Shown: positions 23,576 to 64,000 of the stretch, piece by piece
Position numbering within the stretch: position 1 is the stretch's first letter
Layout of the letters: each line of letters starts with the position of its first letter
Source: an uncultured Gammaproteobacteria bacterium
Lineage (GTDB): Bacteria; Patescibacteriota; Microgenomatia; UBA8517
DNA: 64,000 nucleotides
Direction: 5' to 3'
Assembly: GCA_964583685.1 (NCBI GenBank)
Contig: CAZOVJ010000002.1
Span: forward strand, 111,333-175,332
Notes under the pieces: generated by a model
Told to the model about the DNA's origin: nothing
Seen by the model: the letters and a program-made list of their open reading frames with translations, nothing else
Database searches by the model: none
Program-made: the position numbers and the translations under genes

Positions 23576-26500
23576 TTAAGTCACTGGAATTAACCTACCG
23601 ATGATAACATTTTCTTTTAATCCTCGCAGGTAATCTCTTTTCCCAAATAAGGCTGCTTTGGTCAAAACGTTTGTTGTCTGCTCAAAGGAAGCAGCTGATA
23701 ACCAACTTTCGGTAAATAGTGAGCGCCGGGTAATACCCAATATTTCCTGTCTGGCACTGGCCGGCTCTCCTCCCGCTGCCAAAACCGCCTCATTTTCTTC
23801 TTCAAATTTTGCTTTTTCCACCAATTCACCGGGGAGTAAAGAAGTATCCCCGGCGGTCATAATCTTTACCTCATCACCCATTTTTCTGATAATTACCTCA
23901 AAATGCCGGTCATTGATAGGAATTCCCTGAGATTCATAGACTTCTTGCAAATGATTAACTAAATATTCCTGCGCTTTCCTCAACCCCCGAACCGCCAAGA
24001 TCTCCTTTATGTCCAGAGAGCCAGAAGCAAGCTGAGTCCCAACATCGACAAGTTGCCCTTTGGTCACCCTCAGTTCATTCGCCTTGGGAATTAAATATTC
24101 TCTTTCTTCTTTGGGTTTTGTCTGGACGCTGACCACTTTAACTTTCCAACCGGCTTCCGTCTCAGAAATCTCCACCTTCCCGGCTATCTCCGATAATGGT
24201 GAAAGGATCTTGGGAGTTCTGGTCTCAAACAACTCTTCAACTCGAGGAAGACCCTGGGTAACATCAACACCAACAACTCCTCCAGAATGTTTTGTTTTTA
24301 GAGTAAGTTGGGTTCCCGGTTCACCAATCGACTGAGCGGCAACGACCCCGACTGGAACACCAATTTTAACTATCTCCTTATTCGAAAGGTCCCAGCCATA
24401 GCACTGAGCACAAACCCCATATCGAGTTGAACAAGTCAGGGGTGAACGAACCATAACCGCATCTATCTTTGCTTTATTAATCTCTTCAGTCTTTTGTTCA
24501 TCAATAATTTTTCCTTTCTTGAGTATAACTTTTCCTTTAGAAGTTTTGATGTCCTCGCTAGCGATTCTTCCCACTATCCTATTGTCAAAAAATTCTGGAC
24601 GAACAGATCTTCTAATAACCAAACCTTCAGTCGTACCACAATCCTCTTCCCTGACAAGAACATCATGGGCAACATCAACCAATCTTCGAGTAAGATAACC
24701 GGCATCAGCCGTCTTAATGGCTGTATCGGTCAAGCCCTTCCTTGAGCCCCGGCTGGAAGCAACATACTCAAAAACCGACAGTCCTTCTCTAAAATTACCC
24801 TTAATAGGAAGTTCAACGATTTTACCCAGGGGGTCAACAACCAATCCCCTCATTCCAGCCAACTGCTTAATCTGGTTACGTGAGGTTCGGCCAACCTTGG
24901 CATCAATTACCATTCTGATTGAGCCTTCTGTGTCTATTACTTCCCAGGTTTTGTCGGCAATTTCTTCCGTAGTCTCTATCCATATCTCCTGGATTAACCG
25001 TTTCTTCTCCTCGTTGGTAATTAAACCTTGACTAAAATTATTCTCAATGCCGGCAATCTTCTTATCAGCCTGTCTTATCAATTTACCTTTCTCGGGTAAA
25101 AGAGTGGCGTCTGAAATGCCAAAAGAAAGACCGGATATTGTTCCTCCCTTGAGTCCCAAATCCTTAATATTATCAATCAGCTTTATCGTCTCTGTGTGTT
25201 TGAGCTGAAAGAAAGCTTTATTCATCAAATCCTTGATGACCGATGAATCGGCAGCCTGGTTTATGAAATTGAAACCAGGAGGTAAAACCTTATTTAAAAG
25301 TAGCCGGCCAGTGGTTGTTTCAACTGTCTTTAAAGCCAGCCTTATGTTTATCTTTTGCCTTAGTTCAATAACCCCCATTTGATAAGCGGAGATTGCCTCA
25401 TCAACATCACTAAAAACCGTCTCGCAGGGCTTAATTCGTGAATCCTCGCTGGTTAAGTAGTAAACTCCCAAAGCTATTTCTTTCTTTGCAGGAGCAGCAA
25501 TCGGTGATCCATCAGCTGGTCGGAGCAAGTTCTTATCAGATAACATCAAATCTATTGCTTCTTTGACTGCTTTTTTTGAAAGGGGAATATGAACTGCCAT
25601 CTGGTCTCCATCAAAATCAGCATTAAAACCAGCACAGATTGCCGGATGAATTCTAATCGCCTTCCCTTCAATTAATACAGGATAGAAAGCCTGAATCCCC
25701 AGCTTATGAAGAGTTGGGGCCCGATTTAAAAGAACAGGATGATTTTTGGTAATCTCTTCTAGAATATCAAAAACCTCTGCTGGTTTTTGATCAAGCATAT
25801 TTTTAGCACTCCGCACATTGGGAGCGATTTCCCGAATAATCATCTCATGAAGAACAAAAGGCTTAAACATCTCCAAAGCCATCTCTTTTGGAAGTCCGCA
25901 CTGATTAAGCTTAAGCTCGGGCCCAACAACAATAACTGAACGTCCAGAATAGTCAACCCTTTTACCAAGAAGATTTTGCCTAAATCTTCCCTTTTTCCCC
26001 TTAAGCATATCTGAGAGAGACCTTAAAACCTGTCTTCCTCGTCCTCTTCGGGTAGCTTTACGCTGGGAAGCGTCAATCATAGAATCAACCGACTCCTGAA
26101 GCATCCTCTTTTCGTTGCGTAAAATAATGTCGGGTGCACCGAGCACTATTAAATGTTTAAGTCTATTATTGCGATTAATAACTCTTCTATAAAGATCATT
26201 TAAATCACTAGCAGCAAAGCGTCCACCAGACAGTTGAACCATTGGCCGTAAATCCGGAGGCAGGACAGGCAGAACCCTGAGTACTGCCCAGCTTGGGTCA
26301 ATTTTGGCATCTCGCAAAGCATCTATTAGTTTCAATCTCTTGGCTAGCTTTATGTATCGTTCACCCCGACCTTTTAGCTCTTCCAGTTCTTTTTTTATCT
26401 CTAGAGACAGCTTCTTTAAGTTAAGACTTTCCAAAGCTGAAAGAACTGCTTCAGCACCTGTCTTGACTTCGAGAAAAGCGGTCGCATCATAAAAAGCAAG

Positions 26501-29500: not shown

Positions 29501-30508
29501 GGCATGGGTTGCAACCAATTCTCCGACCCGTCTAAGACGGCGGTTAGCCAGGTGATCTATGTCATCGACTTTCCCTTGACCATTTTGCAGAGAAATCAAG
29601 TAGGATAAGGTGGCGACAATATCTTGTTTTGTTAAAACTCCACTTGACTCATCATTAAGAAGACCCATCTTCAATCTTTTATTTATCTTGTATCGTCCCA
29701 CTCTTCCCAAGTCGTATCTTCTTGGATCAAAAAAAAGAGTATTAACTAGATTTTCTGCATTTTCTAAAACAGCCGGCTCTCCTGGTCTCATCTTTCTATA
29801 AAATTCAAGAAACGCCTCCTCGCGCGTCTTGGTTAAATCCTTTTCTATTGTGCTGGCTATATATCGGTGGCTATTATCTATATCAGCATCGGAGAAAAGT
29901 CTCAAAATCTGGATATCTGAGGCAACCCCCATTATCCTCAAAAATGTCACCGCATTCATTTTTCTTCTTTTGTCTATCCGAACAGCAATAATGTCCTTTC
30001 TATTCACCTCAAACTCAATCCAAGAACCATGTAGGGGTCTTATCTCCGCCTTATAAAGCATTCTGCCGGAAGAAGGATCTAAATCACCTGAAAAATAAAC
30101 TCCAGGGGACCTTACCAGCTGATTGATAACGGCTCTTTCAACTCCCTTGACAACAAATGTTCCTGAAGAGGTCATCTGGGGAATGTTCCCCAGAAAAACT
30201 TCCTGGCTAACCTTCTTGCCCGTCTTTTTATTGATTAAGGTTGCTTTTATCTTGAAGGAAGAAGAAAAGGTCAAACCTTTTTCTCTAGCTGTATCCGGAG
30301 TAATCTGGGGAGGCTCCAGCTTAGGCTCAATCAATTCCAGCTGCCAATTCTTCCCTGTAAAATCCTCAATTGGTAAAATCTTGACCAGCTCTTGCTTGAT
30401 TCCCTTTTCTAAAAACCACTGCCAAGACTCTCTTTGAACTAGAATAAGGTCTAATGGGGGCAGTTTTTTCTCTGTTTTTCCGAAATTGCGTCTTTTAGGT
30501 TGGGCCAT
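23576..30508 (-). CDS. rpoBC: DNA-directed RNA polymerase beta-beta' fusion (RpoB-RpoC in one 2310-aa ORF)
   Basis: The N-terminus is beta-like. The beta C-terminus [27 protein letters not shown]...LAVELGKEG runs in frame through a linker [20 protein letters not shown] into the beta' N-terminus [11 protein letters not shown]...[26 protein letters not shown]...[12 protein letters not shown], and ends with the beta' C-terminus. The junction is at about 27210..27275, with no stop codon. Confidence 0.9.
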
Positions 30509-32314: not shown

Positions 32315-32948
32315 GGGCTTCTTCTAAGGGCACTATTCTTGCCCTAATAACCAGCCTTTTGGGCTTCAGGGGATGGCCGGGCGGGACACAAGTTATTAAG
32401 GTTAAAAAAGAATCACTCTGATTCTGCTCTAAAACCTGAATGTTTGTGGTTAGGGCCTCAAAAATGTCCTCAACCCGATATTGATAAGAAATGCCGTCAT
32501 ATTCTACCTCAATCTCATCACCCCTTTTCAGACTGGGCAGAGTAGAAAAAATGGCCAAATAATCCTTGGGGTTGTAAAACTGAGGCAAGATTGAATGGCC
32601 GAAAATAACGGCATTCCCCCGCTTGCCGGGCAGGGCCGTACCCGGGTATTGAATCAGGCTCTGAGACAAATCCTCTCCACCGATGGCCACAGTTGCATTT
32701 TCTATTTTTAGCTTGGGAATGGAAAGAGTATAAAAAGAAATCTTCAGAGAAACAAAATCATTGCTTTCCTTTCCACCAACAAACCAATTGCTGGCCTTTG
32801 TATAGTCTGGCTGGGAGACAGAAGAACTGGCTGTCTTTGTTTCATAGGATAAAATTGGGTAAAGAACGGAAAAGAGAATAACAACACCTGAAACTGCACA
32901 AACGGCAGCTATTATGGTAATGAAAGTTTTGTTTTGCCAGAGATTCAT
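32295..32948 (-). CDS. Sortase family transpeptidase
   Basis: N-terminal membrane anchor; conserved His (AVIFGHS), catalytic TLITC motif and downstream Arg (RLVIRARI). Confidence 0.7.
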   Translation of the reverse strand: MNLWQNKTFITIIAAVCAVSGVVILFSVLYPILSYETKTASSSVSQPDYTKASNWFVGGKESNDFVSLKISFYTLSIPKLKIENATVAIGGEDLSQSLIQYPGTALPGKRGNAVIFGHSILPQFYNPKDYLAIFSTLPSLKRGDEIEVEYDGISYQYRVEDIFEALTTNIQVLEQNQSDSFLTLITCVPPGHPLKPKRLVIRARIVPLEEAHVHTRH

Positions 32949-35107
32949 TCTTCTGCCACTACTTCAATAGATATATTCCTGTTGATTCGGGGTAGAGTTC
33001 TCAGTTTTCCAGGAAGAGATGGCTTCAAACGGATCTCCACCCGAGTGAATCCAGAAATTGTTGAAAGATGATCTTCAGCCAGGGGCAGGTATTTTCCCTT
33101 AATTGCCCTAGTAATCTCCTCCGGCCTTATCTCAGGAAGCAAATTGGCTTTAAAAACTACATCAAGCTGCCAAATTCCGTTCTCACTCTTTTCATTCAGA
33201 TAAAATTCTGCTTCAATCTGCTCTTCCTTTAAAACAAAACCCTCGGCAACCTGGTCCTCCAAAATCCCTTTTGCCAATTTCTGTAAATCTGACCTTAAAA
33301 CAATTAGACCGGCCATGTCTAAAGACATACTCAGCTTAAGGGTGGGTGCCTCATCGCCAAGCTTGTGATTGAAATCCCTGGCTGAGACTGTTTTTTCTAT
33401 TGCCTCTTCGATAAAAATCTTCTCTTCACTTACCTGCTCTCGAATTTGCTTCTTGCCAAGATCAAGTAATTCTTCGCTTAAATCTCTTTCCAAAATATCT
33501 TTATCCTCAGAGGAGACAACGCTAATTTCCCGACTCGACCCACCCAAAAAATCCTCCTCTGCTATCCCGTCGACTTCGCTCTTGGGATAATTAGCCACCT
33601 GAAAGGTTTGTTCTTTCGCCAAGTTGTACTCAGCCCCAATTTCCTCCGCAGTGACGCTGACGCTGGCTGTACCCGGAGAAGAAGGAGAAACTGCGGCCGA
33701 CACTGAAGCTGAACTGTCAAGTGTGAAACTTAGATTGTTTGGTCCTAAAATTTTTGTCTCTGCCGCCAGCCTGATGTTCGAAGATGTTCCATTCTGAATC
33801 AAAACCTTACCCTTGGCCTTTTCCCCCACTCTTTTACTTCCTGTGGTCGAGCGTGTTTTATCGGCTGAAACTGATGTTTCCAAAACATTACCAGGCAAAA
33901 GCCTCTCTTCAAAATTGGCACCATTTACTCTCGGATCAACAAATAAAATTTCTTTTTGCTCAATATTCTTGGGGGCAACATAAATTGTCACCTCTGCTTT
34001 AGGTAAAAACCACCAAGCAGAAAGAGCAAGAATGATAATAGCGACAAAACCTATTCCTCCAAAAACGAAAAATCTTTTACCCGTCATCCCTCTCTGAATA
34101 GAAAAGGGAAAACTCTTCAGCTTTTTTAAAACAACAGAAGACAATGCTTTCTTAAAAAAAGAAGGTTTCTTGACAACAGGGGGAGTAGCCATTGTTTGAT
34201 CCACCTCCCTCCTTTGCTGTTCTTGAGTTATATCCTTACCAACGGTAAATCCCATATCTTCTGGCCCAAGGGCCTGGCTCTCAATCTTTTCCTTCTCTTG
34301 TTCTTTTTTTTCTCCTTCTTCTTCCGGCTCTTGCCTCTTTTCAACCTCAAGAGAGACAACTCCTTCTATCTCTGATGCCCCGGCCAAACAAACACTAAAA
34401 AGCTTACTGTCTGAGTCAATAATTTCCACCTTTGGGGTGTGAAGAAATTGTACCTTTTCTTGCAAATTTCCTGTCCAGTCTGCCGCTATAAGAATCTGCT
34501 TCTCTTCTTCCAGGTCGCCTTCTCTACCATTGTATATCAAAAATCGTGAGGGAAATGGCTCACCGGTTTTAAGCCTAACCAACCCCTCAATAAGATCGTC
34601 TACCACTGAAACGCTTCTTGTCACAGAGGTTGTGCCCACTAAATTTCCCAGTCTATAAACAGCTATATCCAAGAGTTCTTGGCCTAGACCAATAACCACC
34701 GCACTTAAAGGAGAACCTTCTTCTGATTTAATAAAATGAGCAATTGCTTCTGGAAGAACAACAAATCCCACTGGTTCAAGAGAAAGTTTAGAACAAATCC
34801 CTCTTATCTTGTCCAAATATTCTTTTTTTATCTGGCCTTTCAAGACCCATGATGATGAAACTCCAAAAACTGTTTTTGAGGGTTCGGGTGCATCTTCGGG
34901 TAAATCCTGTATTGCTAGCGATAAAGAAGTATCAGCCACATTTGGCAAATCCTCATCTTTCTCCCAACGAGAGGGGGGGCTGGTTGAGTAAACTTTTGCC
35001 TTCTTTGTTTCCTGGTCTATTACCCAAACAGCCGCCTGAATCCAATTAGGCTCGATTAGTAGAGACCAATAATACTCTTGCATAGATTCTCCGAATACCC
35101 GAGGCAA
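32945..35107 (-). CDS. Hypothetical bitopic membrane protein (about 330-aa cytoplasmic N-domain, one TM, about 350-aa extracytoplasmic domain)
   Basis: 720-aa ORF. The N-terminal region (YYWSLLIEPNWIQAAVWVID...) is weakly reminiscent of actin-like FtsA/PilM N-termini. An acidic linker is followed by a TM helix (FFVFGGIGFVAIIILALSAWWFL) and a Ser/Thr-rich C-terminal domain. Confidence 0.5.
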   Translation of the reverse strand: MPRVFGESMQEYYWSLLIEPNWIQAAVWVIDQETKKAKVYSTSPPSRWEKDEDLPNVADTSLSLAIQDLPEDAPEPSKTVFGVSSSWVLKGQIKKEYLDKIRGICSKLSLEPVGFVVLPEAIAHFIKSEEGSPLSAVVIGLGQELLDIAVYRLGNLVGTTSVTRSVSVVDDLIEGLVRLKTGEPFPSRFLIYNGREGDLEEEKQILIAADWTGNLQEKVQFLHTPKVEIIDSDSKLFSVCLAGASEIEGVVSLEVEKRQEPEEEGEKKEQEKEKIESQALGPEDMGFTVGKDITQEQQRREVDQTMATPPVVKKPSFFKKALSSVVLKKLKSFPFSIQRGMTGKRFFVFGGIGFVAIIILALSAWWFLPKAEVTIYVAPKNIEQKEILFVDPRVNGANFEERLLPGNVLETSVSADKTRSTTGSKRVGEKAKGKVLIQNGTSSNIRLAAETKILGPNNLSFTLDSSASVSAAVSPSSPGTASVSVTAEEIGAEYNLAKEQTFQVANYPKSEVDGIAEEDFLGGSSREISVVSSEDKDILERDLSEELLDLGKKQIREQVSEEKIFIEEAIEKTVSARDFNHKLGDEAPTLKLSMSLDMAGLIVLRSDLQKLAKGILEDQVAEGFVLKEEQIEAEFYLNEKSENGIWQLDVVFKANLLPEIRPEEITRAIKGKYLPLAEDHLSTISGFTRVEIRLKPSLPGKLRTLPRINRNISIEVVAEE

Positions 35108-36866
35108 CTGCCTTTTCTTTAATTATTTTAACACGCCCTAGCTCGCCAAGCCGACGAACATGGGGGCCCCCACAAATCTCCTTAGAAAACCATCCACCGG
35201 CTGGCGGACCAATACTATAAACTTTTACCTTCTCCTCATACTTTTGTCCAAAAAAGGCCAATGCTCCCTGCTTCTTGGCTTGCTCAAGAGTCATCGTCTC
35301 AGACGAAACCTCTAAATTTTTCCCAATTTGTTCATTTACTAAATCTTCAACCTTTTTAATTTCCTCATCAGTTAATTTTTTAGGGTGGGAAAAATCAAAC
35401 CGCAAACGCTCAGGCGTAATATGAGAACCTTTTTGCTCAACATGCTTGCCCAAAACCTTTCTCAAGGCTGCCTGCAAAAGATGGGTAGCTGTATGTAACT
35501 TTTTAGTCTCCTCACTTGTATCCGTCAATCCTCCCTTAAACATACCAGAACTTGCCGTTCTAGATTTTTCTTTATGTTTTTTCCTTTCTTTCTCAAAACC
35601 TTTAACATCAATACCGACACCTTGCTCTTTTGCATATTCTTGAGTCAGCTCTAGTGGCCACCCGTATGTCTGATAATAATCAAACGCTCTCTGTCCAGAG
35701 ATAACTGAACCCTTTTGTAGTAATTGAATTTCTTTTTTTACAGGACTGGAGGCTAGGGTTTTTTCAAACCTTTCTGTCTCACTGATTATAACTTTAGCAA
35801 TATCAGGCCGCGTCAGATAGCCGTCTGGGTACCTTTTCTTAAATTCGTTGATAACCTCAGAAAGCAAACCCTTTTCTAAATCAATATTCAAAGATTTTGC
35901 CTGTATAGAAGATCTTCTTATCAACCTGCGTAAAATATACCCCTGTTTCTTATTAGAAGGCTCTATGCCAGCATTAACAAGAAATATAGCCGCTCTTATG
36001 TGATCTAAGATTATTCTTATTGACCTAGAGGAATCTTTAGAATCTCGTAATATAGATCCTTCTATCTTCTTTTTTGCGCCTACAAACACATCAGTTTCAA
36101 AAATATCTGGTTCGTTGTTTACTGCAGCTACAGTTCTTTCCAACCCTCCTCCGAAATCAACATTTTTTTGGGCTAATTCTTCCAATGAACCGTCTTTCTT
36201 CTTTTTATATTGAATAAAAACTGAATTTCCTATTTCCAAAAATCTTCCACATTGACAGTTCGGGTGGCATTTTTTCCCAAATTTCGAATCATGTTTAACC
36301 TGGGTAAATTCGTAAAAAATCTCAGAGTCCGGTCCGCCAATTTCACCGCTGGGCATCTGGCTGGGAATTCCTGTTCTTGACCACCAATTTTCTTCGACCC
36401 CGTAATAGAAAATTCTTTTTTCCGGGACGCCCAATTTTTTATAAATTTCCGCCGATTTTTCATCCCTGGGCACATCCTTTGTCCCGCTAAAAACAGTTAC
36501 ATAGAGTTTATCCTTGGGCAACTTAAGCTCCTGAACAAGAAATTCCCAAATCCAGGCAAGTTGTTCTTTCTTAAAGTAATCACCCAAGGACCAGTTGCCA
36601 AGCATCTCAAAAAAGGTTGTGTGCCGATTATTACCAACCTCATCTATATCCTCAAGCCTCAAACAGGGTTGAGAATTGACCAAACGCTTTCCTTGAGGAT
36701 GGGGTTTTCCCAGAAGATGAGGAACTAACTGCTGCATTCCAAAAGGAGTAAAAAGCGTTGTCGGATCACTCTCAGGAACCAAAGGAGCCGGGCTAATCTC
36801 CTGGTGGCTTCGTGGGGCTTTCTTAAAGAAACCAATATATTTTTTTCTGGCTTCATTTGTTGTCAT
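35046..36866 (-). CDS. alaS: Alanine--tRNA ligase, short form lacking the C-terminal C-Ala domain
   Basis: Class II catalytic core (…FTPFGMQQLVPHLLG…RHTTFFEMLGNWSLGDYFK…) and the editing domain (HTATHLL...CGGPHV); 606 aa. Confidence 0.85.
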   Translation of the reverse strand: MTTNEARKKYIGFFKKAPRSHQEISPAPLVPESDPTTLFTPFGMQQLVPHLLGKPHPQGKRLVNSQPCLRLEDIDEVGNNRHTTFFEMLGNWSLGDYFKKEQLAWIWEFLVQELKLPKDKLYVTVFSGTKDVPRDEKSAEIYKKLGVPEKRIFYYGVEENWWSRTGIPSQMPSGEIGGPDSEIFYEFTQVKHDSKFGKKCHPNCQCGRFLEIGNSVFIQYKKKKDGSLEELAQKNVDFGGGLERTVAAVNNEPDIFETDVFVGAKKKIEGSILRDSKDSSRSIRIILDHIRAAIFLVNAGIEPSNKKQGYILRRLIRRSSIQAKSLNIDLEKGLLSEVINEFKKRYPDGYLTRPDIAKVIISETERFEKTLASSPVKKEIQLLQKGSVISGQRAFDYYQTYGWPLELTQEYAKEQGVGIDVKGFEKERKKHKEKSRTASSGMFKGGLTDTSEETKKLHTATHLLQAALRKVLGKHVEQKGSHITPERLRFDFSHPKKLTDEEIKKVEDLVNEQIGKNLEVSSETMTLEQAKKQGALAFFGQKYEEKVKVYSIGPPAGGWFSKEICGGPHVRRLGELGRVKIIKEKAVASGIRRIYARVLLVSTNRA

Positions 36867-45870: not shown

Positions 45871-46713
45871 TTAGCTTATTGTATTTCCTTTATAGATTTT
45901 CGGTTCGAGCCAAGATTTCGGAGGCTCCTCTTTTTTATTAACTTGAGAAGTCTGTTTGGGTATTGCCCCGGCCGGAAAAACCCGGGGGTCAACCTGATGT
46001 CGAGGAGCCCTCTGACCACCTGCACGCATAAGTTCAGAGGCGATAGCAAATGTTTCTGCTGTAACTTCCGGAACTGTAAAATTCTTACTACCATGCTCGA
46101 TTCCCAGTAAAAGATTGCTAGCAATATCGGCATTAAAACTAAACCCACTTTCTTTAATTAAAGTGGCAGCCACCTCTGAAACAGAAGAGGCTGGTCTTGC
46201 CAAGGATATTATCTTGCGATTGTCAGAAGTAGAAACCGCCCTTGTTCCAATATGGACAGTTTTTGTTTCGAGAAAATCACTTGTTGAAAGGGCGGGAAAA
46301 TGCTTCTCGCTTCTCCCCCCAAAAAGGACAAGTAAATCACTGGAAACCCCACTATAGGAAAACTCAATTTGCTCCTTTTTCGGAGATGTAACACCCGCTT
46401 TTGGCGTAACCGTTAAACGAAATTCCTTGTTTTCAATATCATAACCCACTCTTTCAATATCATCTGCTCTATAGCCAACAAATCTAATTATCAAATTTTT
46501 ATTCCCTTGCTCTGAATTTATTTTGTTGACTCCAACCAGACGATTAAATTCGACCAGCATCGGGGTTGGACAAGAAATGCTCACCTCTTTTTTATCTGAA
46601 AGAAACAGATAAAACGACAGTCCAGCAGCCACCTGATCGAAAAATGGGTTTATGGGCAAGAGAATAAGAACAGACTTACTTGTATCGAGAAGGGGCTTTA
46701 AAGAATTTTCCAT
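45871..46713 (-). CDS. Hypothetical protein, possibly a degenerate DHH/DHHA1-like phosphoesterase
   Basis: 280 aa. It occupies the position between infB and rpsO where rbfA, truB or DHH nanoRNase genes sit in other bacteria. The N-terminal VLILLPINPFFDQVAAGLSFYLFLSD resembles a DHH-family N-terminus but lacks an intact DHH motif. Assignment is weak. Confidence 0.35.
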   Translation of the reverse strand: MENSLKPLLDTSKSVLILLPINPFFDQVAAGLSFYLFLSDKKEVSISCPTPMLVEFNRLVGVNKINSEQGNKNLIIRFVGYRADDIERVGYDIENKEFRLTVTPKAGVTSPKKEQIEFSYSGVSSDLLVLFGGRSEKHFPALSTSDFLETKTVHIGTRAVSTSDNRKIISLARPASSVSEVAATLIKESGFSFNADIASNLLLGIEHGSKNFTVPEVTAETFAIASELMRAGGQRAPRHQVDPRVFPAGAIPKQTSQVNKKEEPPKSWLEPKIYKGNTIS

Positions 46714-56133: not shown

Positions 56134-56673
56134 ATGACTGCTCTACAGATTAATCTTTTACCTCAGGAAGAATTTGCCGCCTCCACTTTGGGGAGGATAT
56201 TAACTTGGTTACTTTCAACTTTCCGAATAATAGTAATTGTCACTGAAATGATTGTTATGTCTTCTTTTTTTCTCCGATTTTGGTTCGACGCCAAATTGAC
56301 TGACCTCTCTGAAGAGATTCAACAAAAACAAGCGATAATCAGTTCCTATTCTTCTTTTGAAAAGGATTTCAGGCTTGCCCAAAAAAAACTTAGGATATTC
56401 TCATCATCGACTTCTGACCAGAAAAGCCTAGAACTCTTCCAAGGTCTCATCTCTTGCTTACCGGAAAACATCCAGCTAAATTCCTATTCTGCCAGCCTCA
56501 ACGATTTGCAAATAAAAGCAATGAGTACCAACGAACAATCAATTGCTCAATTTATAGCCAACCTGGAAAACAAAGAACAATTTAAAAATGTTTCTTTGAG
56601 AAACCTTGAAACAAATAAGGACGACCTGTTCATTGGTTTCCTGATCAAAGTTAATCTGAAAGGAGATATATAA
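56134..56673 (+). CDS. pilN: PilN-like type IV pilus assembly protein
   Basis: N-terminal INLLPQEE signature (PilN INLLPWREE), a single TM, and a coiled-coil periplasmic domain. Confidence 0.55.
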   Translation: MTALQINLLPQEEFAASTLGRILTWLLSTFRIIVIVTEMIVMSSFFLRFWFDAKLTDLSEEIQQKQAIISSYSSFEKDFRLAQKKLRIFSSSTSDQKSLELFQGLISCLPENIQLNSYSASLNDLQIKAMSTNEQSIAQFIANLENKEQFKNVSLRNLETNKDDLFIGFLIKVNLKGDI

Positions 56674-57329
56674 TGGCTCTTGGTTGGAAACGAAGATATC
56701 TTCGTTATCAAAAATATTATTTAAATATCCTTGCCCTTTACAAAAAACGCCAGGATTTAAAAATGTTCTTAGAAATTCTTCTTTCTCTGGCCACAATTGC
56801 CTTTTTCGCTGTTTTTGCCTTGAAACCAACCCTCCTGACTATCGCCCAGCTAAAGAGGGAGGTAGATACTAAAAAAGAAACAGTCGTCAAAATGGAACAA
56901 AAAATTCAGAATTTGTCTCGTGCTTCAGCCCTTTTTAATCGAGAAATATCCAGGCTTTCACTGCTCGATACGGCTGTTCCGAGCAATCCTTCTCCCGGCT
57001 TAGAAGTAAGACAAATTGAAGGAATAGCGAAAAAAAATAAAGTAAGCATTTTGGGAATATCTCTAGGAGAAATTACCCTTGTCGGCCAAGAAAAGGAAAA
57101 GTTCAAAGAGAAAAAAGAGTTAAAAGAATTTCCTGAAGGAGCGAAAGCAATAAGTCTCTCGATTAATGTTTCGGGCACATATCCTGATTTGGTTGCCTTT
57201 CTTTCTGATTTAGAAAGCCTGAGAAGGCCATTGCGGATAGATGCAATCTCTTTTAATCTAATTTCCACAGAAGAAAAACAAACAATTGTCTTGACGCTAG
57301 CTGGCCGGGCACCTTATCTTAAGGACTAA
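56673..57329 (+). CDS. PilO-like membrane protein
   Basis: 218 aa; cytoplasmic basic N-terminus, one TM, and a coiled-coil plus alpha/beta C-terminal domain. The start overlaps the pilN stop (ATAATGG coupling). Confidence 0.4.
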   Translation: MALGWKRRYLRYQKYYLNILALYKKRQDLKMFLEILLSLATIAFFAVFALKPTLLTIAQLKREVDTKKETVVKMEQKIQNLSRASALFNREISRLSLLDTAVPSNPSPGLEVRQIEGIAKKNKVSILGISLGEITLVGQEKEKFKEKKELKEFPEGAKAISLSINVSGTYPDLVAFLSDLESLRRPLRIDAISFNLISTEEKQTIVLTLAGRAPYLKD

Positions 57330-57337: not shown

Positions 57338-57619
57338 ATGAAAAAACAAAGAGTCAAAACACCAAGTCTAGTTATCATCGCCATCCTGACGGTAATCACC
57401 ATCGCTTTTTGGATAGCATTCAATGTTTTTAGAACCCTGACTATAAAAACACCGTCGTCTGTTCCCCTGGAAATTCTCTCCCCTCTTAATCCCAATCTTG
57501 ACTCACCGGCCCTTAAAGGGCTACAAGAAAGGATACAATTAACAAACACAGAGATCGACAGCATGGAAGCACCGGAAATAAGTTCCTTGGCCAGTCCAGA
57601 AGGAGAAATTAATGAATAA
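57338..57619 (+). CDS. Small membrane-anchored protein (hypothetical, possibly PilP-like accessory)
   Basis: 93 aa, with a basic N-terminus, one TM, and an acidic Ser/Pro-containing tail. Confidence 0.35.
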   Translation: MKKQRVKTPSLVIIAILTVITIAFWIAFNVFRTLTIKTPSSVPLEILSPLNPNLDSPALKGLQERIQLTNTEIDSMEAPEISSLASPEGEINE

Positions 57620-58961
57620 ACTCAAAATGAATAAGCTAAAATTACCAACATTGATTGCTGTTATAGTTCTCACCATGGGGCTGGCAGCCGGCGTTCTTTT
57701 GTTACAAAGTAAACAAATCTTTAAACTCGGGGCCTCTCCTGACATTGCCCCAAAAGATGTCAGGATAACAAATATTACGGACACTTCCTTTACTGTCTCC
57801 TGGACAACAGATAAAAAAACCAGTGGTTTTATTATTTGGGGAAAAACTGAACAATTGGGACAGACAACAATTCCGGAAAACCAAGGATTAAAAAACGTTC
57901 ATTCAATAACCACTAGACAGCTTTCTCTTGAAACAGCTTACTTTTTAAAAATCAATTCCAATGCCAACGAATTTGATAATAGTGGAATTCCCTGGCGGAT
58001 GAAAACCGGTCCCTCTCTTAAAATCCTCTCTGTTCCGGGAATCATTTCCGGCTCTATTTTGACCGCCACTGGACAACCAGCAGCAGAAGTTACTGTTTTT
58101 GTCAGTGCCGGAGGAATCAGCCCTCTGTCGGCAACAACTTCTCAGGATGGCAGTTGGGTAATTCCCTTGTCTAACATCCGCAGTGCGGACCTTTCTTCAT
58201 TTGGGCAGTTAAAACAGGCAAATGTTCTTTTAGAAATCTTTGTTCAAGGAGGCCCGCTGGGAGTTGCTACTGCCAAAATCTTTACCAATTCGGCTAATCC
58301 CACCCCCCATATCATTCTCGGTAAAACACATGATTTTAGAAATGAGCCGGCAAATGAAGCTTCCGAACTGCCCGAGGCCTCAATCAATTTACCAGAAGAA
58401 TCCACGCCCTCTTCTGGCTTTGAAATCCCTGAGGAAATAGCCACACCTTCGGGGGAAACAATCAGTATAGAAAGTATAAGTGAAGGAGAAACTATAAGTT
58501 CCACCGAGCCAGAATTCTTCGGGAAAGGGCCTTCGGGAACCATTATTACTATTACCATCGAATCAGACCCGATCTCCGCTCAAACAACTGTTAATTCTTC
58601 GGGAAATTGGAATTGGAACCCACCAGAAGAACTAGAAGAAGGAACACATCAAATTACTCTTTCTTGGAAAGACAGCAATGATATCTTAAGGACCTTAACC
58701 CGAAACTTCATTGTTCAAGCAGCAGAAGGGCCTGCTTTTGAATCAACACCCTCGGCTGAGCCGACTGCTTCTCCATCTCCTTCTCCAACTCCCTCTGCCA
58801 GCCCTTCAGCCTCTCCCCGTGTAAGCCTACCCTCTACTGAATCAGGAACCCCAATTCCCGGAACCTTGACACCCACTCTAGTCTTGTTTACGATAGGAAC
58901 AGGGCTACTTACTTTGAGTGGAGCACTTGTTTATTTATTGTTGTTTCATAAACAAAATTAA
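57612..58961 (+). CDS. Cell-surface protein with an N-terminal anchor, an FN3-like domain, Ig-like domains, a Ser/Pro-rich linker and a C-terminal hydrophobic anchor
   Basis: The FN3-like signature is DVRITNITDTSFTVSWTTDKKTSGFIIWGKT. The linker is AEPTASPSPSPTPSASPSASP. The C-terminus ...LPSTESGTPIPGTLTPTLVLFTIGTGLLTLSGALVYLLLFHKQN has a sorting-signal-like architecture. Confidence 0.5.
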   Translation: MNKLKMNKLKLPTLIAVIVLTMGLAAGVLLLQSKQIFKLGASPDIAPKDVRITNITDTSFTVSWTTDKKTSGFIIWGKTEQLGQTTIPENQGLKNVHSITTRQLSLETAYFLKINSNANEFDNSGIPWRMKTGPSLKILSVPGIISGSILTATGQPAAEVTVFVSAGGISPLSATTSQDGSWVIPLSNIRSADLSSFGQLKQANVLLEIFVQGGPLGVATAKIFTNSANPTPHIILGKTHDFRNEPANEASELPEASINLPEESTPSSGFEIPEEIATPSGETISIESISEGETISSTEPEFFGKGPSGTIITITIESDPISAQTTVNSSGNWNWNPPEELEEGTHQITLSWKDSNDILRTLTRNFIVQAAEGPAFESTPSAEPTASPSPSPTPSASPSASPRVSLPSTESGTPIPGTLTPTLVLFTIGTGLLTLSGALVYLLLFHKQN

Positions 58962-58986: not shown

Positions 58987-60195
58987 ATGCCAGATCAACC
59001 TGCCCCAAACAAACCAGATAAACCTGTTTCTCAACCTTCTCAGCCCGTTAGTGGCAAGCCGCCAGCTCCAACCCTTCCTCCCCAACCATCAACTCCTGGA
59101 GCTCCCCCTGCACCAATTCCTCCTGGGCCTCCTCCTCCATCTCCTCCTATATCTCCTCTGCCTTCAAAATCAGAGAGTGAAGAACTTCCTCCAATCATTA
59201 GCACTCCAGCCAAAAAGAAATTGGGCAAAGGCAAAATAGTTGCCGCAATTTTGGGAGTTTTGCTTTTGGTTGGCGGCGTTACGGCCGGAGTAATCCTGGT
59301 CCAACAGCGCCAGGAATTAAGAGAAAAGGCAGCATGTACCCCATGCCTAGGAGGGACATGTCCTGATGGATGGTCGTACGGGCCTGATGAATGTTCCTGG
59401 CAACCATGCGACGCTAGGGCGATAGAAGCGTGTAAGGACCATCAAATTACTTCGGACGGTGGCGGTGAAGAACCCAGTGAAGGAGAAGGTCCTTATTGCG
59501 CCATCTGTAGTCCTGCGGACGCATGCGAGTGCGATAAGGGTACTACAACAGGTTATAAATGCAAATTTGCTCCCTCAGAGTGTGCTCATTTAGGCTACAC
59601 CTGGCAACCAGATTCCAGCTGCCCGACTGGTCAATCATGTGGTGACGAGGGAGAGGAAGCTGGTTTTGAATACATTACATTCGAGTGCGATCGGTGCGAA
59701 GGACTAAAATGCCAAACCGAACCGGTAATAGGAGTTAATCCTCGATTCATGCTTGGTAACCATCCCGGACCCTGTAGTCAGGTAGATAGAAGACCGATAG
59801 GCTCCACTGATGGCTGGACCGCTCACGATCTCTGCGATAACGACGATTGGTGTATATCACCAACCGCTACCCCAACCTTACCTCCGGGTATAACCTGTCA
59901 GTGTCGGGAAATCAAGGCCTTTGATACCGGCTGGAATCAGTTAACCTCAGAACAGCTAGGGCAGCTCCAGGCTGGAGATACCGTCTATTTCACTGTTAGC
60001 GGTACTAAAACCTCAGGAATTTTTGACAAGGCGAGGTTTACCATTAATGCCATTCTCAGACCAGAGGTTACCAACAAAAGACCGGGAACTGACGAATTCT
60101 ATGACCAGTATCAAATTACCTCAACCGATATTAGCCGGGGTAGTATCAGTCTGGGAGCCATCATTCATCATCAAGAATTAGATGAATGGTTCTAA
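58987..60195 (+). CDS. Membrane-anchored Cys-rich extracytoplasmic protein with a Pro-rich cytoplasmic N-terminus
   Basis: An approximately 80-aa Pro-rich N-terminus (PAPNKPDKPVSQPSQPVSGKPPAPTLPPQPSTPGAPPAPIPPGPPPPSPP) is followed by a TM and about 27 Cys in CxxC / C-x-C patterns (CTPCLGGTCPDG...CAICSPADACECDKG...CDRCEGLKCQ), with a beta-rich C-terminal domain. Confidence 0.5.
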   Translation: MPDQPAPNKPDKPVSQPSQPVSGKPPAPTLPPQPSTPGAPPAPIPPGPPPPSPPISPLPSKSESEELPPIISTPAKKKLGKGKIVAAILGVLLLVGGVTAGVILVQQRQELREKAACTPCLGGTCPDGWSYGPDECSWQPCDARAIEACKDHQITSDGGGEEPSEGEGPYCAICSPADACECDKGTTTGYKCKFAPSECAHLGYTWQPDSSCPTGQSCGDEGEEAGFEYITFECDRCEGLKCQTEPVIGVNPRFMLGNHPGPCSQVDRRPIGSTDGWTAHDLCDNDDWCISPTATPTLPPGITCQCREIKAFDTGWNQLTSEQLGQLQAGDTVYFTVSGTKTSGIFDKARFTINAILRPEVTNKRPGTDEFYDQYQITSTDISRGSISLGAIIHHQELDEWF

Positions 60196-60673
60196 AAAAA
60201 TGAAAGAATTTTTAAAGAAAAATACAATTACGGTCTTAATTATCATTGCCACCATCGTCTTAGCTGGCATCGCTATGTTTACCGCCTTCAGGCTCTATCA
60301 GCTAAGACAAAAGGCGGTCGCCCCCACTGTACCCGAAAGCAGGCCGGCTGCCGAAGAACTTCCCGCGCCTGTTCCTGATTGCACCCTGACCTTTGCTTTT
60401 GCTGCCACGCCAACTCCCACAGCAACACCGACTGGAAGCCCCAGCCCTACACCGACAGCCACGCCGGCAGAAAGTCCAACACCCACACCAACAGCCACTC
60501 CCACATCCACTCCCTCTCCCAGCCCGACTGTTACACCCAGTCCAGGTGTCATTCCAACCCCCTCACCCACCCCGGCCCCTGAGCTGCCAGAAGCAGGCAT
60601 CAACTTACCAACAATCTGCGGGCTTGGCATTGGCGCCCTTCTCCTCATTATCAGCCTCATCCTAGCCCTCTAG
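60182..60673 (+). CDS. Small surface protein with an N-terminal anchor, a Thr/Pro-rich mucin-like repeat region, and a C-terminal LPEAG + hydrophobic tail
   Basis: TPTPTATPTGSPSPTPTATPAESPTPTPTATPTSTPSPSPTVTPSPGVIPTPSPTPAPELPEAGINLPTICGLGIGALLLIISLILAL. The repeat DNA yields spurious overlapping ORFs in other frames. Confidence 0.5.
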   Translation: MNGSKKMKEFLKKNTITVLIIIATIVLAGIAMFTAFRLYQLRQKAVAPTVPESRPAAEELPAPVPDCTLTFAFAATPTPTATPTGSPSPTPTATPAESPTPTPTATPTSTPSPSPTVTPSPGVIPTPSPTPAPELPEAGINLPTICGLGIGALLLIISLILAL

Positions 60674-60686: not shown

Positions 60687-63095
60687 TTATCTCCATGAAG
60701 AAAACCAGTAATAAGAATTGTCCAGACTAAGTGGTATTTTCAAGCCTATCCAATGAGGATAAAAATAAAGGAAAATTATTCCTGCAAGGACAAAGAAGGG
60801 AATGGCCAGTCTAGAAAACCTTCTCAGAACATAAGCTGTTACCATTGCCAAAAAGGGCATTGAAGGCAGATAATGATAAAGAAACATTATTCTCGGTGAA
60901 ATTGCCCAGGGAACAAAAAAGGCAAAACAGGAAAAAACAATCAAAGCCAGTTTTTTATTTTTTTCAAAATAGGCATAAATTAGGCAAATGACAATTGCCA
61001 ACACTCCAAACCAAAAAACCAGGGGATTACCCATGGCATAGATATTGGCAACTGCATGCCTGATTGCTCCGCTGGTATAAAGCCAAACCGGCCGAAGCAA
61101 AAAGGGCCAACTCCACCAGGGAGATGTATAAGGATGAGTGGCTTCCAGTTGGGAATGATACCACCACATTTGTTTTTGGAGACCAACGAAAATATCCCAA
61201 CCATGGCCAGTTAAAAAGAGCGGCAGATAACTTGCCAGGTAGACGGCTGCCGGAACAAGCAAAAACCAAAGGTAACCCTTGGTAAATTTTCGTTTAAGAG
61301 AGAAGTGGGAAATTAGCAAAACCGGAATCATCCAGATGACAGTCCATTTGGAAGCAGCAGCCAGACCCAAGGCCATGGCCGAGAAAAGGTTTTCCTTTTT
61401 AAGGAAGAGATAAAGAGAAAGCAGGCTAAAAAACAAAAAATAAATATCGTTCATGGCGATTCTGGACATGCTTAAGACCAGGCCGTCCAAGGCAAAAGCT
61501 CCTGAGGCCAAGAGAGCTAGTAGCCGGTCTTTAAATAGCTCTTTTGTCAGTAAATAAACAAGATAAACCGTGACCACGCCCAGTAAGGCCGCCGGAATCC
61601 TCCAGCCAAAGGCATTTTCGCCAAAAACAAGCATCCCCAAAACCATTGCTTCTTTAGCCAACGGCGGGTGGGTCCATTCATAGGCAAAACCTTTAGGCGG
61701 CGTATTCCACCATTCCCAGACCTTTGGGTCCCCATGAAGCATGCGCCGGGCCGTAAAGGCATGATAAACCTCATCAAAATATTCTTTTTTGGGCTGACCC
61801 AACCAGGCAACTCGGGTTAAAAAGGAGAAAATGAGCAGGCCAATTAGTAAGTTTCGACCCACAACTTGGCTTATGTCTTTCCTCTTCTTTTCCTTCTTAA
61901 ATTTAATTAACTGATTGAATAAAGGTAAAGCAAACCTTTTACTTTTCTTCACCAATATTTCACGGAAGAGAAAAAAGAGAAACCCAAGGTTGAAAAGGAT
62001 AAAAATTTTTAGAACCAAGGGAGAAAAAACGCTCAAAAAATCTTTTGTTATCCAGTTAAAGGAATAATATAAATTAGCAAGATAAATGGCGGAAAAGCCA
62101 AGATAAGGAATCCAAAGACGAGAATTTAAAACTGAAGCAATTGCCAGAAAGGCAAAAGCCGGTAAAAGATGTCTTTCGTGCATCCGGGTAAAAAAGAAAA
62201 AGCTTGAAATAAAAATCATGCTAGCCAGAAAATAGCGACCCCCCTTAACTTTTCTTGAGCACCATAAGACTAATAAAGATAGAGTAAAAGTGATAATCAG
62301 TCCGGCTATCTGTAAACCTAGGTTATCCTTTTGCCAAAAACCAAAAAGCCCCAAAAAATTAAAAGCATTAATAGTCGTATAGGGATATTGATTAAGACCT
62401 GTCTGGATTCTTGACAAGATAAAAACAACTAAATTCTGTTCTCCAGAAAAAGGGACAAATCCCAGGATAAAAATCAAGAAAGCAAAAACTATATAAATAA
62501 AAATCTTTTTTGTTTTCCATTTCTCTTTTAACATAATGAAAAGAACAACTGCTGCCGCCAGTCCTGCCTGGGGTTTAACCAATGTGCCAAAGCTCAAGAA
62601 AAACGCTGAAAGAAAAGGATTGATATCAACTAAGTAAATCGCCAAAAGAGAGAATAGGGCGGTTAAGGAATCTACCTGCCCCCAAAGACTAGAGTTTGCC
62701 AAAATAGCAGGATTAAAAACATAGAAACTGGCCGCAATCAAACCCCACTTTTTGTTTTTAATCTTCCTAACAATCAAGTAGATTAACCAGCCACTGAGAA
62801 TATCAGAAATAATCGCCGGGAATTTATAAAGAATAACGCTAGGTATTGACAGCCAATTACTTAATTTTGCCAAAAAACCAAGTATGTAAAGATAGCCGGG
62901 AAGATAATCGCACCAGCTCTGATAAAACCTGGCAAACCCTACATTGACCAATCTGTTGCTCCAAGCAATAAAAGTGTTTTGGTCAAGCTCCAGTGTTCCA
63001 TGGGGAGAAAGAAAAAATCTGACTATCAAAGCTGTTAAAAGTAGCAGTAAAATAGGGAAGAGTGAAAAAAGCTTTTCCCTTTTTTCAGATTCCAT
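60687..63095 (-). CDS. Large polytopic membrane glycosyltransferase, GT-C fold (PMT/ArnT-like), apparently two GT-C-like modules fused
   Basis: 802 aa with more than 20 TM segments. The C-terminal half carries a PMT/ArnT-type first-loop motif YFDEVYHAFTARRML followed by multi-TM helices. The N-terminal half is a second polytopic module (…FARFYQSWCDYLPGYLYILGF…). Confidence 0.5.
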   Translation of the reverse strand: MESEKREKLFSLFPILLLLLTALIVRFFLSPHGTLELDQNTFIAWSNRLVNVGFARFYQSWCDYLPGYLYILGFLAKLSNWLSIPSVILYKFPAIISDILSGWLIYLIVRKIKNKKWGLIAASFYVFNPAILANSSLWGQVDSLTALFSLLAIYLVDINPFLSAFFLSFGTLVKPQAGLAAAVVLFIMLKEKWKTKKIFIYIVFAFLIFILGFVPFSGEQNLVVFILSRIQTGLNQYPYTTINAFNFLGLFGFWQKDNLGLQIAGLIITFTLSLLVLWCSRKVKGGRYFLASMIFISSFFFFTRMHERHLLPAFAFLAIASVLNSRLWIPYLGFSAIYLANLYYSFNWITKDFLSVFSPLVLKIFILFNLGFLFFLFREILVKKSKRFALPLFNQLIKFKKEKKRKDISQVVGRNLLIGLLIFSFLTRVAWLGQPKKEYFDEVYHAFTARRMLHGDPKVWEWWNTPPKGFAYEWTHPPLAKEAMVLGMLVFGENAFGWRIPAALLGVVTVYLVYLLTKELFKDRLLALLASGAFALDGLVLSMSRIAMNDIYFLFFSLLSLYLFLKKENLFSAMALGLAAASKWTVIWMIPVLLISHFSLKRKFTKGYLWFLLVPAAVYLASYLPLFLTGHGWDIFVGLQKQMWWYHSQLEATHPYTSPWWSWPFLLRPVWLYTSGAIRHAVANIYAMGNPLVFWFGVLAIVICLIYAYFEKNKKLALIVFSCFAFFVPWAISPRIMFLYHYLPSMPFLAMVTAYVLRRFSRLAIPFFVLAGIIFLYFYPHWIGLKIPLSLDNSYYWFSSWR

Positions 63096-63113: not shown

Positions 63114-64000
63114 ATGTTAAATCGCAAAGAAAAAAAACTGGCATTTTTTGTCCTCTTTTCGCGCATTTTTCTCTTGCTGGGAATATATCTTTTGAGCATC
63201 TCCATTGTAAATCAGCCACCATCCTTTTCGAAGTTCTTGGAAACTTACGCCAGCCGCTGGGATGGAGACCATTACATTTTTATCTCCCAAAATGGTTATG
63301 TGACAGAATGGCCTGAGGCAAGTTTCATTGTCTTTCTTCCTTTTTACCCACTTACAATTAAAGCTGTAAACTACCTAATTAAAAATCCCCTGATAACCGG
63401 CGTTTTGCTCTCCAATTCATTCTTTATGTTGGCCGCCTTGGCTTTTTACAAACTTCTCAGACTTGACTATTCTCAAAAAATAGCCAGCTTGGCAATTGTC
63501 CTTCTCGCCATCTTTCCCACTTCCTATTTCTTCTCAGCCGCATATCCAGAATCGCTTTTTCTCCTCCTTTTTGCCTTGACATTTTATTTAACAAGAAAGC
63601 ATCTCTTTTTTGTTTCTTCTCTCACGGCCGGCCTTCTCACCCTAACCAAGCCCTTTGGTATACTCATCTGGTTTCCTCTTGTTGTCGAATTTTATCAATC
63701 GAAAAGAAAAAAACTAAAACAGCTTTTCCCATTGCTTCTAGTTCTCGTTTTTTCTAGTTCTCTTTATCTTTTTATAAATTTTTATACCTACAAAGACCCC
63801 TTGGCATTCCAAAAATTTTTAAACAAAAATTGGTACAAATCCTTTGCCTTCCCCTGGCAGGGAATTCTTGAGAGCTGGAAAAGGGGATTCTCAACTCCGG
63901 AATGGGGTAGTTATAAAATTCTCATTGGATTCGCTGAAGCAGTTGCTTCAATAGTCGCTTGGCTCTGTATCCCTTTGGCCTTTCTCAGGAAAACAAAAAT
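63114..64000 (+). CDS. GT-C family membrane mannosyltransferase-like protein (PIG-V/DUF2029-like), partial; continues past the window end
   Basis: ATG at 63114, an open frame to the window end with no stop (checked by hand), and missing from the ORF track. The motif YASRWDGDHYIFISQNGYVTEWPEASFIVFLPFYPL resembles the W-D-x-x-H/Y-Y...GY...AFFPLYP signature of PIG-V-type GT-C mannosyltransferases; multiple TM helices. Confidence 0.5.
   Translation, partial: MLNRKEKKLAFFVLFSRIFLLLGIYLLSISIVNQPPSFSKFLETYASRWDGDHYIFISQNGYVTEWPEASFIVFLPFYPLTIKAVNYLIKNPLITGVLLSNSFFMLAALAFYKLLRLDYSQKIASLAIVLLAIFPTSYFFSAAYPESLFLLLFALTFYLTRKHLFFVSSLTAGLLTLTKPFGILIWFPLVVEFYQSKRKKLKQLFPLLLVLVFSSSLYLFINFYTYKDPLAFQKFLNKNWYKSFAFPWQGILESWKRGFSTPEWGSYKILIGFAEAVASIVAWLCIPLAFLRKTK

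Follow-up and report, generated by a model that had tools for sequence, protein, structure and literature searches.

The minus-strand gene at positions 60687..63095 of the 64,000-nt stretch of contig CAZOVJ010000002.1 analyzed here (hereafter, the window) encodes an 802-aa protein that is a single chain of two distantly homologous glycosyltransferase (GT) modules of the GT-C_A type. Profile matches identify its C-terminal module as a bacterial-type, MIR-less GT39 protein O-mannosyltransferase (Pmt), whereas the N-terminal module is PimE/ALG3/PIG-M-like ('Gpi18-like') and not PMT-like. Our preferred reading, to which we assign a probability of about 0.55, is that of a single-chain Pmt-plus-partner enzyme that would start, and probably extend, O-linked hexose on surface proteins. 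A preliminary description made from the sequence had already proposed a tandem of two GT-C-like modules in this protein. The tandem proved correct in view of the profile and structural comparisons of the N half: the C half passes the Pfam PMT models and the N half is GT-C by profile, and the PimE/ALG3/PIG-M-like assignment refines that description. Source names of the homologues are Woesebacteria, Microgenomates or Patescibacteria, pointing to an uncultured, Woesebacteria-type host. The gene and its parts, with predicted topology, are as follows.

60687..63095, minus strand: gene of the two-module GT-C protein, an ATG-started open reading frame (ORF) of 802 aa
61950..63095, minus strand: N-terminal GT-C module, residues 1-382, about 12 transmembrane helices, N-in/C-in; closest folds ALG3, ALG6, glycosylphosphatidylinositol (GPI) mannosyltransferase I (GPI-MT-I) and PimE
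62982..62984, minus strand: D38, candidate catalytic base at the N-terminal tip of the first juxtamembrane helix (36-52), extracytoplasmic loop 1
62886..62909, minus strand: DYLPGYLY motif (D63-Y70), end of extracytoplasmic loop 1 of the N module
62169..62180, minus strand: H306-E-R-H309 (HER[H/Y]) motif, candidate phosphate-binding site in an extracytoplasmic loop of the N module
61863..61949, minus strand: inter-module linker, residues 383-411, Lys-rich, variable, low-confidence, cytoplasmic
60690..61862, minus strand: GT39 protein O-mannosyltransferase module, residues 412-802, about 11 transmembrane helices, N-in/C-out, no MIR domain
61770..61775, minus strand: D441-E442, PMT 'DE' catalytic motif within FDEVYH, extracytoplasmic loop 1 of the C module

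The C module (residues ~420-801) scores above the Pfam gathering cutoffs of PMT (PF02366; 58.7 bits against 22.7), PMT_2 (57.9 against 26.1) and PMT_4TMC (PF16192; 70.7 against 32.4). In a Foldseek search with the AlphaFold2 (AF2) model, the comparison that the preliminary description had proposed, the top seven matches were all Pmt4, Pmt1 or Pmt2 (E 4e-12 to 4.5e-7), the best PDB fold match of the module being Pmt4 (9i5k_A, E 4e-12), with Pmt1/Pmt2 (6p25) also retrieved. Similarly, phmmer matched Chaetomium Pmt4 at E 2.5e-9. The PMT/ArnT-type loop-1 motif noted earlier in this half, GQPKKEYFDEVYHAFTARRMLHGDPKVWEWW, is indeed present, with D441-E442 at nt 61770-61775. The stretch Y439-F-D-E-V-Y-H445 is invariant across 121 aligned sequences, and FDEVYH stands opposite FDEVH of Chaetomium Pmt4, albeit in a weak, non-significant segment of the phmmer alignment. 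Like actinobacterial Pmt, the module carries no MIR domain. Homology to O-antigen ligases or transporters, which the preliminary description had named as competing readings, was rejected: the ligase WaaL (7tpg_B) reached a Foldseek probability of only 0.06 and a TM-score (template-modeling score) of 0.14, the transporter matches listed had probabilities of 0.14 or less, and neither class gave a Pfam match.

The N half contains the second multi-transmembrane module with the DYLPGYLY motif described earlier (nt 62886-62909). It has the attributes of the GT-C_A fold, being polytopic with a conserved core of seven transmembrane helices and juxtamembrane helices. As a single sequence, the N half alone stays below the Pfam cutoff (PMT_2, 23.3 bits against 26.1) and is sub-threshold in NCBIfam too. 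Scanning of 26 homologues of the module with Pfam returned PMT_2 in 16 (best E 4e-10), PIG-U in six, Mannosyl_trans4 in five and GT87 in two (best E 5e-8). GT87 (PF09594) gave no match in the window protein at E up to 1, and among ten more distant representatives of the N family its 25-bit cutoff was reached only by P0154 (33.1), P0238 (31.5) and P0185 (25.1). The family borders GT87 but falls outside the GT87 model. Of the Pfam models suggested in the preliminary description, PMT and PMT_2 thus matched in the protein and PIG-V in its neighbor, while GT87 failed on the window protein. A PDB profile search with the N-half alignment recovered only GPI mannosyltransferase 1 (E 1.3e-3) and did not detect PimE at E up to 10.

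BLASTP revealed no similarity of the N half to either the C half or the product of the divergent neighboring gene. Comparison of the N and C profiles with hhalign, on the other hand, yielded 96-98% probability (E 1e-9 to 1e-11) in a collinear alignment that pairs D38/D441, K91/R499, D142/D550, K174/K583 and H309/H741, the first of these pairs sitting in a low-confidence stretch. The comparison table of the N module with known GT-C enzymes reads as follows.

ALG3: 27.8
ALG6: 27.6
GPI-MT-I: 27.2
PIG-U: 24.4
PimE: 23.3
ArnT: 19.4
Pmt4: 18.9

The module thus resembles the compact, glycan-extending enzymes that use dolichyl-phosphate-hexose more closely than PMTs. ALG3 (GT58), ALG6 (GT57) and PIG-M/GPI-MT-I (GT50), which act on lipid-linked oligosaccharides or GPI, share 12-15% identity with it, a level at which membership in these families is not claimable. 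One stand-alone member of the N family carries the Joint Genome Institute (JGI) name 'Gpi18-like mannosyltransferase'.

Topology was derived from the helices of the AF2 model (DSSP) combined with the positive-inside rule, using counts of Lys plus Arg (K+R). The mean K+R density per residue over 121 sequences was 0.364 in 'in' loops and 0.075 in 'out' loops, a distribution that places both loop-1 acidic motifs (D38 and D441-E442) outside. A cytoplasmic DE loop, which the preliminary description had regarded as contrary to its proposal, was not found. In each module, the model accordingly predicts an invariant acidic residue where the first juxtamembrane helix begins, facing the outside of the membrane. 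The predicted outside location of the C-terminus of the C module agrees with that of MtbPMT, whose C-terminus was mapped outside by PhoA fusions (PMC12757957). Mean predicted local distance difference test score (pLDDT) of the full-length model was 91.1, dropping below 50 at residues 385-400 of the linker, which shows gaps in the homologue alignment and includes 11 K+R within the 30 residues 382-411. Since Pmt ends outside whereas both ends of the N module are inside, the two are joinable only through the cytoplasmic N-terminus of Pmt, which fits the invariant N-to-Pmt order of the fusions.

The protein has 1163 homologues, and the best 120 are all full length, with 52-61% identity and 94-100% query cover in one ORF, so the reading frame is no product of chance. 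A profile search with the N family against 1.84 billion cluster representatives recovered 8126 relatives with E no higher than 1e-3, of which 1271 have an E of at most 1e-30; the best 150 are a mixture of stand-alone proteins of ~400 aa and fusions of ~770-1275 aa. In every fused representative checked (~50), the N module precedes Pmt, with an inter-module gap of 14-553 residues; a 1136-aa N+Pmt fusion comes from a Clostridiales metagenome-assembled genome (MAG). The family also forms other tandems, as in P0243 (878 aa), which is N+N instead of N+Pmt. In databases, these proteins are labeled simply 'glycosyltransferase family 39'.

Locus architecture was scored in the best 80 of 231 genomes with a relative, one genome per species and nearly all Woesebacteria/Microgenomates; many of these loci end at contig ends, so that all counts of neighbors given below are lower bounds. 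N and Pmt are fused in 75/80 loci, lie in separate, overlapping, same-strand ORFs in 3/80 (pairs of 392-406 aa and 438-446 aa) and are cut at a contig end in 2/80. In a further locus (L088), a more distant stand-alone N gene (P0154) is directly followed by a 405-aa PMT+PMT_4TMC gene, whereas the stand-alone N gene P0185 (L087) clusters with YfhO, two PMT_2 genes and a Wzx-like flippase gene in the absence of any PMT/PMT_4TMC gene. Four of the five unfused cases hence keep the adjacent N-then-Pmt order. Together, the fusion itself (Rosetta-stone evidence) and the operon adjacency in unfused relatives indicate functional coupling of the N and Pmt modules. The separate, overlapping ORFs of three related genomes could also suggest that the fusion is an assembly or annotation artefact, with a frameshift or an error of sequencing having merged two neighboring genes. 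This explanation deserves practically no credence: the identical 802-aa protein is encoded on an independent JGI contig (L006) that reaches past the window end, the 75 fused species genomes include closed chromosomes, and the best 120 homologues cover nearly the whole query in one ORF as stated above. The independent assemblies thus refute it. Many of the MAGs with the locus (L008, L011-L013, L017, L022 and others) are titled 'uncultured Gammaproteobacteria bacterium', and of L045 and L072 one is titled Alphaproteobacteria and the other Methanosarcinales archaeon; such titles are probably placeholder or wrong taxonomy labels of TPA/binchicken assemblies.

The N module retains a full set of candidate active-site residues. 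D38 is present in 48/48 fused and 76/76 stand-alone representatives that are ungapped at its column, and lies in the first turn of AF2 helix 36-52, in a loop predicted outside by K+R. H306 is found in 52/52 fused and 74/77 stand-alone representatives, and D63, Y64, P66, G67, Y68 and Y70 of the DYLPGYLY motif are invariant in the homologue alignment and kept in stand-alone relatives. The likely catalytic acid of the module is D38 rather than this motif, to which the earlier description had drawn attention. K174 and H306/H309, all conserved, are candidate phosphate ligands for a polyprenyl-phosphate sugar donor. In PimE, D58 at the tip of juxtamembrane helix 1 (JM1) is the catalytic base, in a D58/Y62 pair, and K195, W319 and H322 are phosphate ligands (PMC12041525). 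Candidates at positions analogous to D58/Y62, K195 and H322 are D38 with F/W/Y42, K174 and H306/H309, and we infer D38 ~ D58, K174 ~ K195 and H306/H309 ~ H321/H322 as positional candidates, the equivalence resting on position and on the C-module profile alignment, not on structural superposition. Further, D38, W45, D63-Y-x-P-G-Y, K91, D98, W138-G-Q-x-D142, K174-P and H306-E-R-(H/Y) show the same conservation among 52 fused as among 77 stand-alone representatives, which argues against decay of the fused N module into a pseudo-enzyme. Judged from its sequence, it looks active rather than degenerate.

This conservation bears on an alternative role of the N module as a non-catalytic partner, building an intramolecular pseudo-heterodimer with Pmt and serving to recruit the acceptor or to stabilize Pmt. 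Its models are yeast Pmt1-Pmt2 and mycobacterial Pmt with Rv0051/ML2687c. Pmt1-Pmt2 also work as a unit of two GT-C modules, which the window tandem could mimic within one chain; however, both yeast proteins are GT39 with MIR domains, whereas the window protein has only one GT39 module and no contact between its modules is predicted with confidence. In M. smegmatis, a GT87-like protein devoid of catalytic residues, the Rv0051 homologue, was found to co-purify with Pmt, and the Paenibacillus GT39 enzymes translationally fused to GT87 have been read as evidence of dimerization (bioRxiv 10.64898/2026.07.15.738315). The fixed domain order and tight gene linkage suit a structural partnership as well as a two-step pathway. 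Nonetheless, the invariant Asp at the JM1 tip, K91, D98, D142, K174 and HER are equally strict in stand-alone members, some of these members reside in GT-C clusters devoid of a PMT/PMT_4TMC gene (L087), and AF2 offers no confident module interface (predicted TM-score, pTM, 0.64). We regard a purely structural N module as unlikely.

Genes for Thr/Ser/Pro-rich surface proteins lie immediately downstream of the GT gene, in accordance with the TP/SP-rich proteins reported beside it in the preliminary description, and their S+T+P fraction reaches up to 0.82 over 50 aa. The features of this side of the locus are the following.

60182..60673, plus strand: 163-aa TP-rich protein, candidate acceptor; N-terminal transmembrane helix, Thr/Pro/Ser-rich middle, LPEAG..PT and hydrophobic tail; family with the C-terminal motif beside the GT gene in 68/80 loci
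58987..60195, plus strand: 402-aa protein with Pro-rich N-terminus, one transmembrane helix and Cys-rich extracytoplasmic domain, no Pfam match; family in 59/80 loci
57612..58961, plus strand: 449-aa surface protein (fn3, Big_13), candidate acceptor, with an SP/TP-rich stalk before the C-terminal transmembrane helix; Big_13 protein family in 57/80 loci
56134..57329, plus strand: PilN-like and PilO-like genes (Pfam PilN 1.8e-11, PilO 2e-4), head of the same-strand surface-protein operon

The 163-aa gene is convergent with the GT gene, with 13 bp between them, and its product has an S+T+P fraction of 0.82 over residues 82-131; in the 449-aa protein, this fraction is 0.66 over residues 373-422. 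The Thr/Ser/Pro-rich regions of both proteins should be outside the membrane and are similar to the Thr/Pro-rich sites that serve actinobacterial Pmt as targets (PMC12757957). The Pro-rich stretch of the 402-aa protein precedes its transmembrane helix and is probably cytoplasmic, so this protein is not a candidate acceptor. Proteins of the 163-aa family end in LPx(S/A)G-x2-3-PT followed by a Gly-rich hydrophobic helix terminating in ..LLAL, with no basic tail. This end looks like a sortase-like or a new C-terminal sorting signal; an NCBIfam scan of the surface proteins matched no known C-terminal sorting-signal model. The synteny with PilN/PilO-like genes is conserved among relatives.

On its other side, the GT gene is flanked by a further GT-C gene. 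The third GT-C gene claimed earlier to start 18 bp away on the opposite strand was found, separated by the gap 63096-63113. Of the PIG-V-like signature attributed to it, YASRWDGDHYIFISQNGY is present, whereas AFFPLYP is not and the sequence reads FLPFYP instead.

63114..64000, plus strand: divergent PIG-V-like GT-C gene, partial in the window, 369 aa at full length on contig L006; adjacent in 12/80 loci
L006:7777-8868, plus strand: LytR-CpsA-Psr (LCP) gene, directly after the PIG-V-like gene and just past the window end (E 2.7e-30); LCP gene adjacent in 65/80 loci
'X385' membrane-protein gene: adjacent in 66/80 loci

PIG-V (PF04188; GT76-like) scores 28.2 bits with the partial and 28.0 with the full-length gene product (cutoff 22.4), over profile positions 50-250 of 443 only. 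As a conserved partner of the fusion, the PIG-V-like gene was discarded given its occurrence in only 12/80 loci; the usual occupant of the slot is the BLASTP-dissimilar X385 family, which is absent from the genome of the window, where the PIG-V-like gene takes its place. X385 proteins are polytopic and ~385 aa long (examples, all on the minus strand, at L005:8821-9978, L004:8806-9954 and L002:6896-8041), with yvvyPPmPAil and QFGYRfavDFyPfL in their consensus. They have no Pfam model and only a weak LA_3751/LA_3752 match in NCBIfam. In profile comparison, X385 matched the Pmt module with a probability of 96.9% and the PIG-V-like family with one of 95.7%, and at this profile level it is another GT-C family. 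On L006, LCP is followed by UvrD and then by two FemAB genes.

These neighbors also speak for a locus that builds a cell-wall or membrane glycopolymer, for example a lipomannan-like lipoglycan or a polymer attached to peptidoglycan by LCP, and not a glycoprotein. The acceptors of both GT-C modules and of the neighboring GT-C enzymes would then be lipid- or polymer-linked. LCP lies beside the GT-C genes in at least 65/80 loci, with FemAB and MurJ near. The PIG-V-like neighbor weakly matches the NCBIfam 'cell surface glycopolymer formation protein' (E 5e-8, below cutoff), and the closest folds of the N module (ALG3, ALG6, PIG-M and PimE) all act on lipid-linked glycans. Mycobacterial GT-C enzymes build lipomannan/lipoarabinomannan (LM/LAM) and arabinogalactan. 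However, the C module has the PMT-specific PMT_4TMC domain and FDEVYH, and its best structures are protein O-mannosyltransferases, not ArnT, Emb or Aft. Moreover, the conserved secreted Thr/Ser/Pro-rich neighbors are typical of Pmt-type acceptors, and LCP is not kept with the distant N-Pmt pair of L088 and was not detected in L079 or L086. On balance, the glycopolymer explanation is doubtful. The dedicated protein O-glycosylation or surface-glycopolymer cluster proposed in the preliminary description fits the PMT domains and the synteny, while the function itself we still infer.

In the preferred reading of a single-chain Pmt-plus-partner enzyme, the Pmt module would take hexose, probably mannose, from polyprenyl-phosphate-hexose at the outer face of the membrane, and would put it on Ser/Thr of the Thr/Ser/Pro-rich stalks of secreted membrane-anchored proteins, those encoded next door being the obvious candidates. 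Mannose transfer from polyprenyl-phosphate-mannose to protein Ser/Thr is suggested only by the family of the C module and its Thr/Ser/Pro-rich neighbors. The fused N module would be the covalently tethered counterpart of the GT87-type partner bound by mycobacterial Pmt. Since none of its candidate residues for catalysis or phosphate binding is lost, this module probably extends the O-linked hexose by the next sugar, as PimE is reported to do in mycobacteria, where O-mannose is begun by Pmt and lengthened by this GT87 enzyme (PMC12757957). Neighboring GT-C genes (PIG-V-like and/or X385) would extend or decorate the glycan further.

Several observations weigh against this reading. The pTM of the full-length AF2 model is only 0.64, compared with 0.92 for the N module alone, which leaves a defined module-module interface unsupported and contact unproven. 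The C module reaches 57.1 bits with the NCBIfam Pmt equivalog NF058602, far from its cutoff of 800, and is thus not an orthologue of actinobacterial Pmt. The GT87-like partner of mycobacterial Pmt is reported to be catalytically dead, so partnership does not imply elongation, and the equivalence of the N-module residues to those of PimE is positional, as said above. None of the 20 window ORFs scanned encodes a polyprenyl-phosphate-sugar synthase (GT2/Ppm1-like). The adjacent LCP, FemAB and MurJ genes suit a cell-wall glycopolymer role equally well. Finally, synteny with the Thr/Pro-rich proteins is observed chiefly in a single class (Microgenomatia), and common descent may account for part of it.

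Comparison with known systems places the protein close to, yet apart from, several of them. The C module is like actinobacterial Pmt (Rv1002c, S. coelicolor Pmt and Cg1014) in being MIR-less, with ~11 transmembrane helices, PMT plus PMT_4TMC domains and the loop-1 DE, and the likely acceptors are alike as well, being Sec-exported proteins with Thr/Ser/Pro-rich regions. It differs in being very divergent and shorter (~390 aa), in its covalent fusion with another GT-C module and in its host, which belongs to the candidate phyla radiation (CPR). With respect to PimE, Rv0051 and ML2687c, the window protein is below the GT87 threshold, and ALG3, ALG6 and PIG-M are structurally slightly closer to it than PimE; unlike ML2687c, the N module retains candidate catalytic residues. 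Further parallels are GT87-GT39 fusions of Firmicutes (Paenibacillus V9WAU2, by description, and Clostridiales MDD6763271.1), in which a GT87-like module likewise precedes Pmt. With the N-module profile, the 1136-aa protein from Clostridiales (P0238/P0278) gave a match at E 4e-58, and it has PMT and PMT_4TMC. Firmicutes fusions are longer (~900-1270 aa), with inserts of 170-550 residues against a CPR linker of ~30 residues, and P0225, whose taxon is unassigned in the data, carries CBM and F5/8 type C domains, unlike the CPR version. The fusion architecture is widespread, already remarked in Firmicutes, and not new in kind.

The window has a G+C content of ~41%, and the remainder of it is mostly housekeeping (ribosomal proteins, RNA polymerase, SecY, NusA, IF-2, DnaK/DnaJ/GrpE/HrcA and MurJ). 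A 2310-aa ORF (23576..30508, minus strand) has RNA polymerase beta (Rpb2) domains at residues 67-1075 followed by beta-prime (Rpb1) domains at 1092-2261, and resembles an rpoB-rpoC fusion; such fusions are known in Helicobacter and Wolbachia. A 720-aa ORF with no Pfam match (32945..35107, minus strand) overlaps by ~60 nt with the end of a 606-aa alanyl-tRNA synthetase (AlaRS) ORF (35046..36866, minus strand) that contains the tRNA-synt_2c and tRNA_SAD domains only, so the AlaRS region at 32945..36866 may have a split or unusual organization. Two other minus-strand ORFs, 339..1664 (441 aa) and 45871..46713 (280 aa), gave no Pfam match at the thresholds used.

Bacteria of the Patescibacteria (CPR) are ultra-small and for the most part episymbiotic; their surface chemistry is, to our knowledge, almost unknown, and we know of no protein glycosylation described in them. 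Our literature search found no paper on Pmt/GT39 in Patescibacteria/CPR, nor on 'Gpi18-like'/COG5542. The locus provides a first hint of protein glycosylation among CPR bacteria. It also exposes an annotation gap, the N module being un-annotated by Pfam and NCBIfam and the X385 family being without any model. A natural GT87-like-plus-Pmt chain is independent comparative support for the recent proposal of a bacterial Pmt working with a GT87-type partner, and, owing to its short linker, the CPR form is compact enough to suit structural studies of the two modules together. The chromosomal conservation of the block of GT-C, Thr/Pro-rich and pilus-assembly-like genes points to surface-protein glycosylation as a core trait of Woesebacteria/Microgenomates. 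A bolder possibility, which we put forward as improbable, is a self-contained 'initiate-and-extend' O-glycosylation machine that, with two to three GT-C neighbors and LCP, would build a defined oligosaccharide on a CPR-specific class of surface proteins, those with an N-terminal transmembrane helix, a Thr/Pro-rich stalk and the LPx(S/A)G..PT tail, whose genes share a block with the PilN/PilO-like ones. If true, this would give Patescibacteria their first described pathway of protein glycosylation; the tail motif could be a new sorting signal, and the pathway could tie to the pili or the episymbiotic attachment surface of these bacteria.

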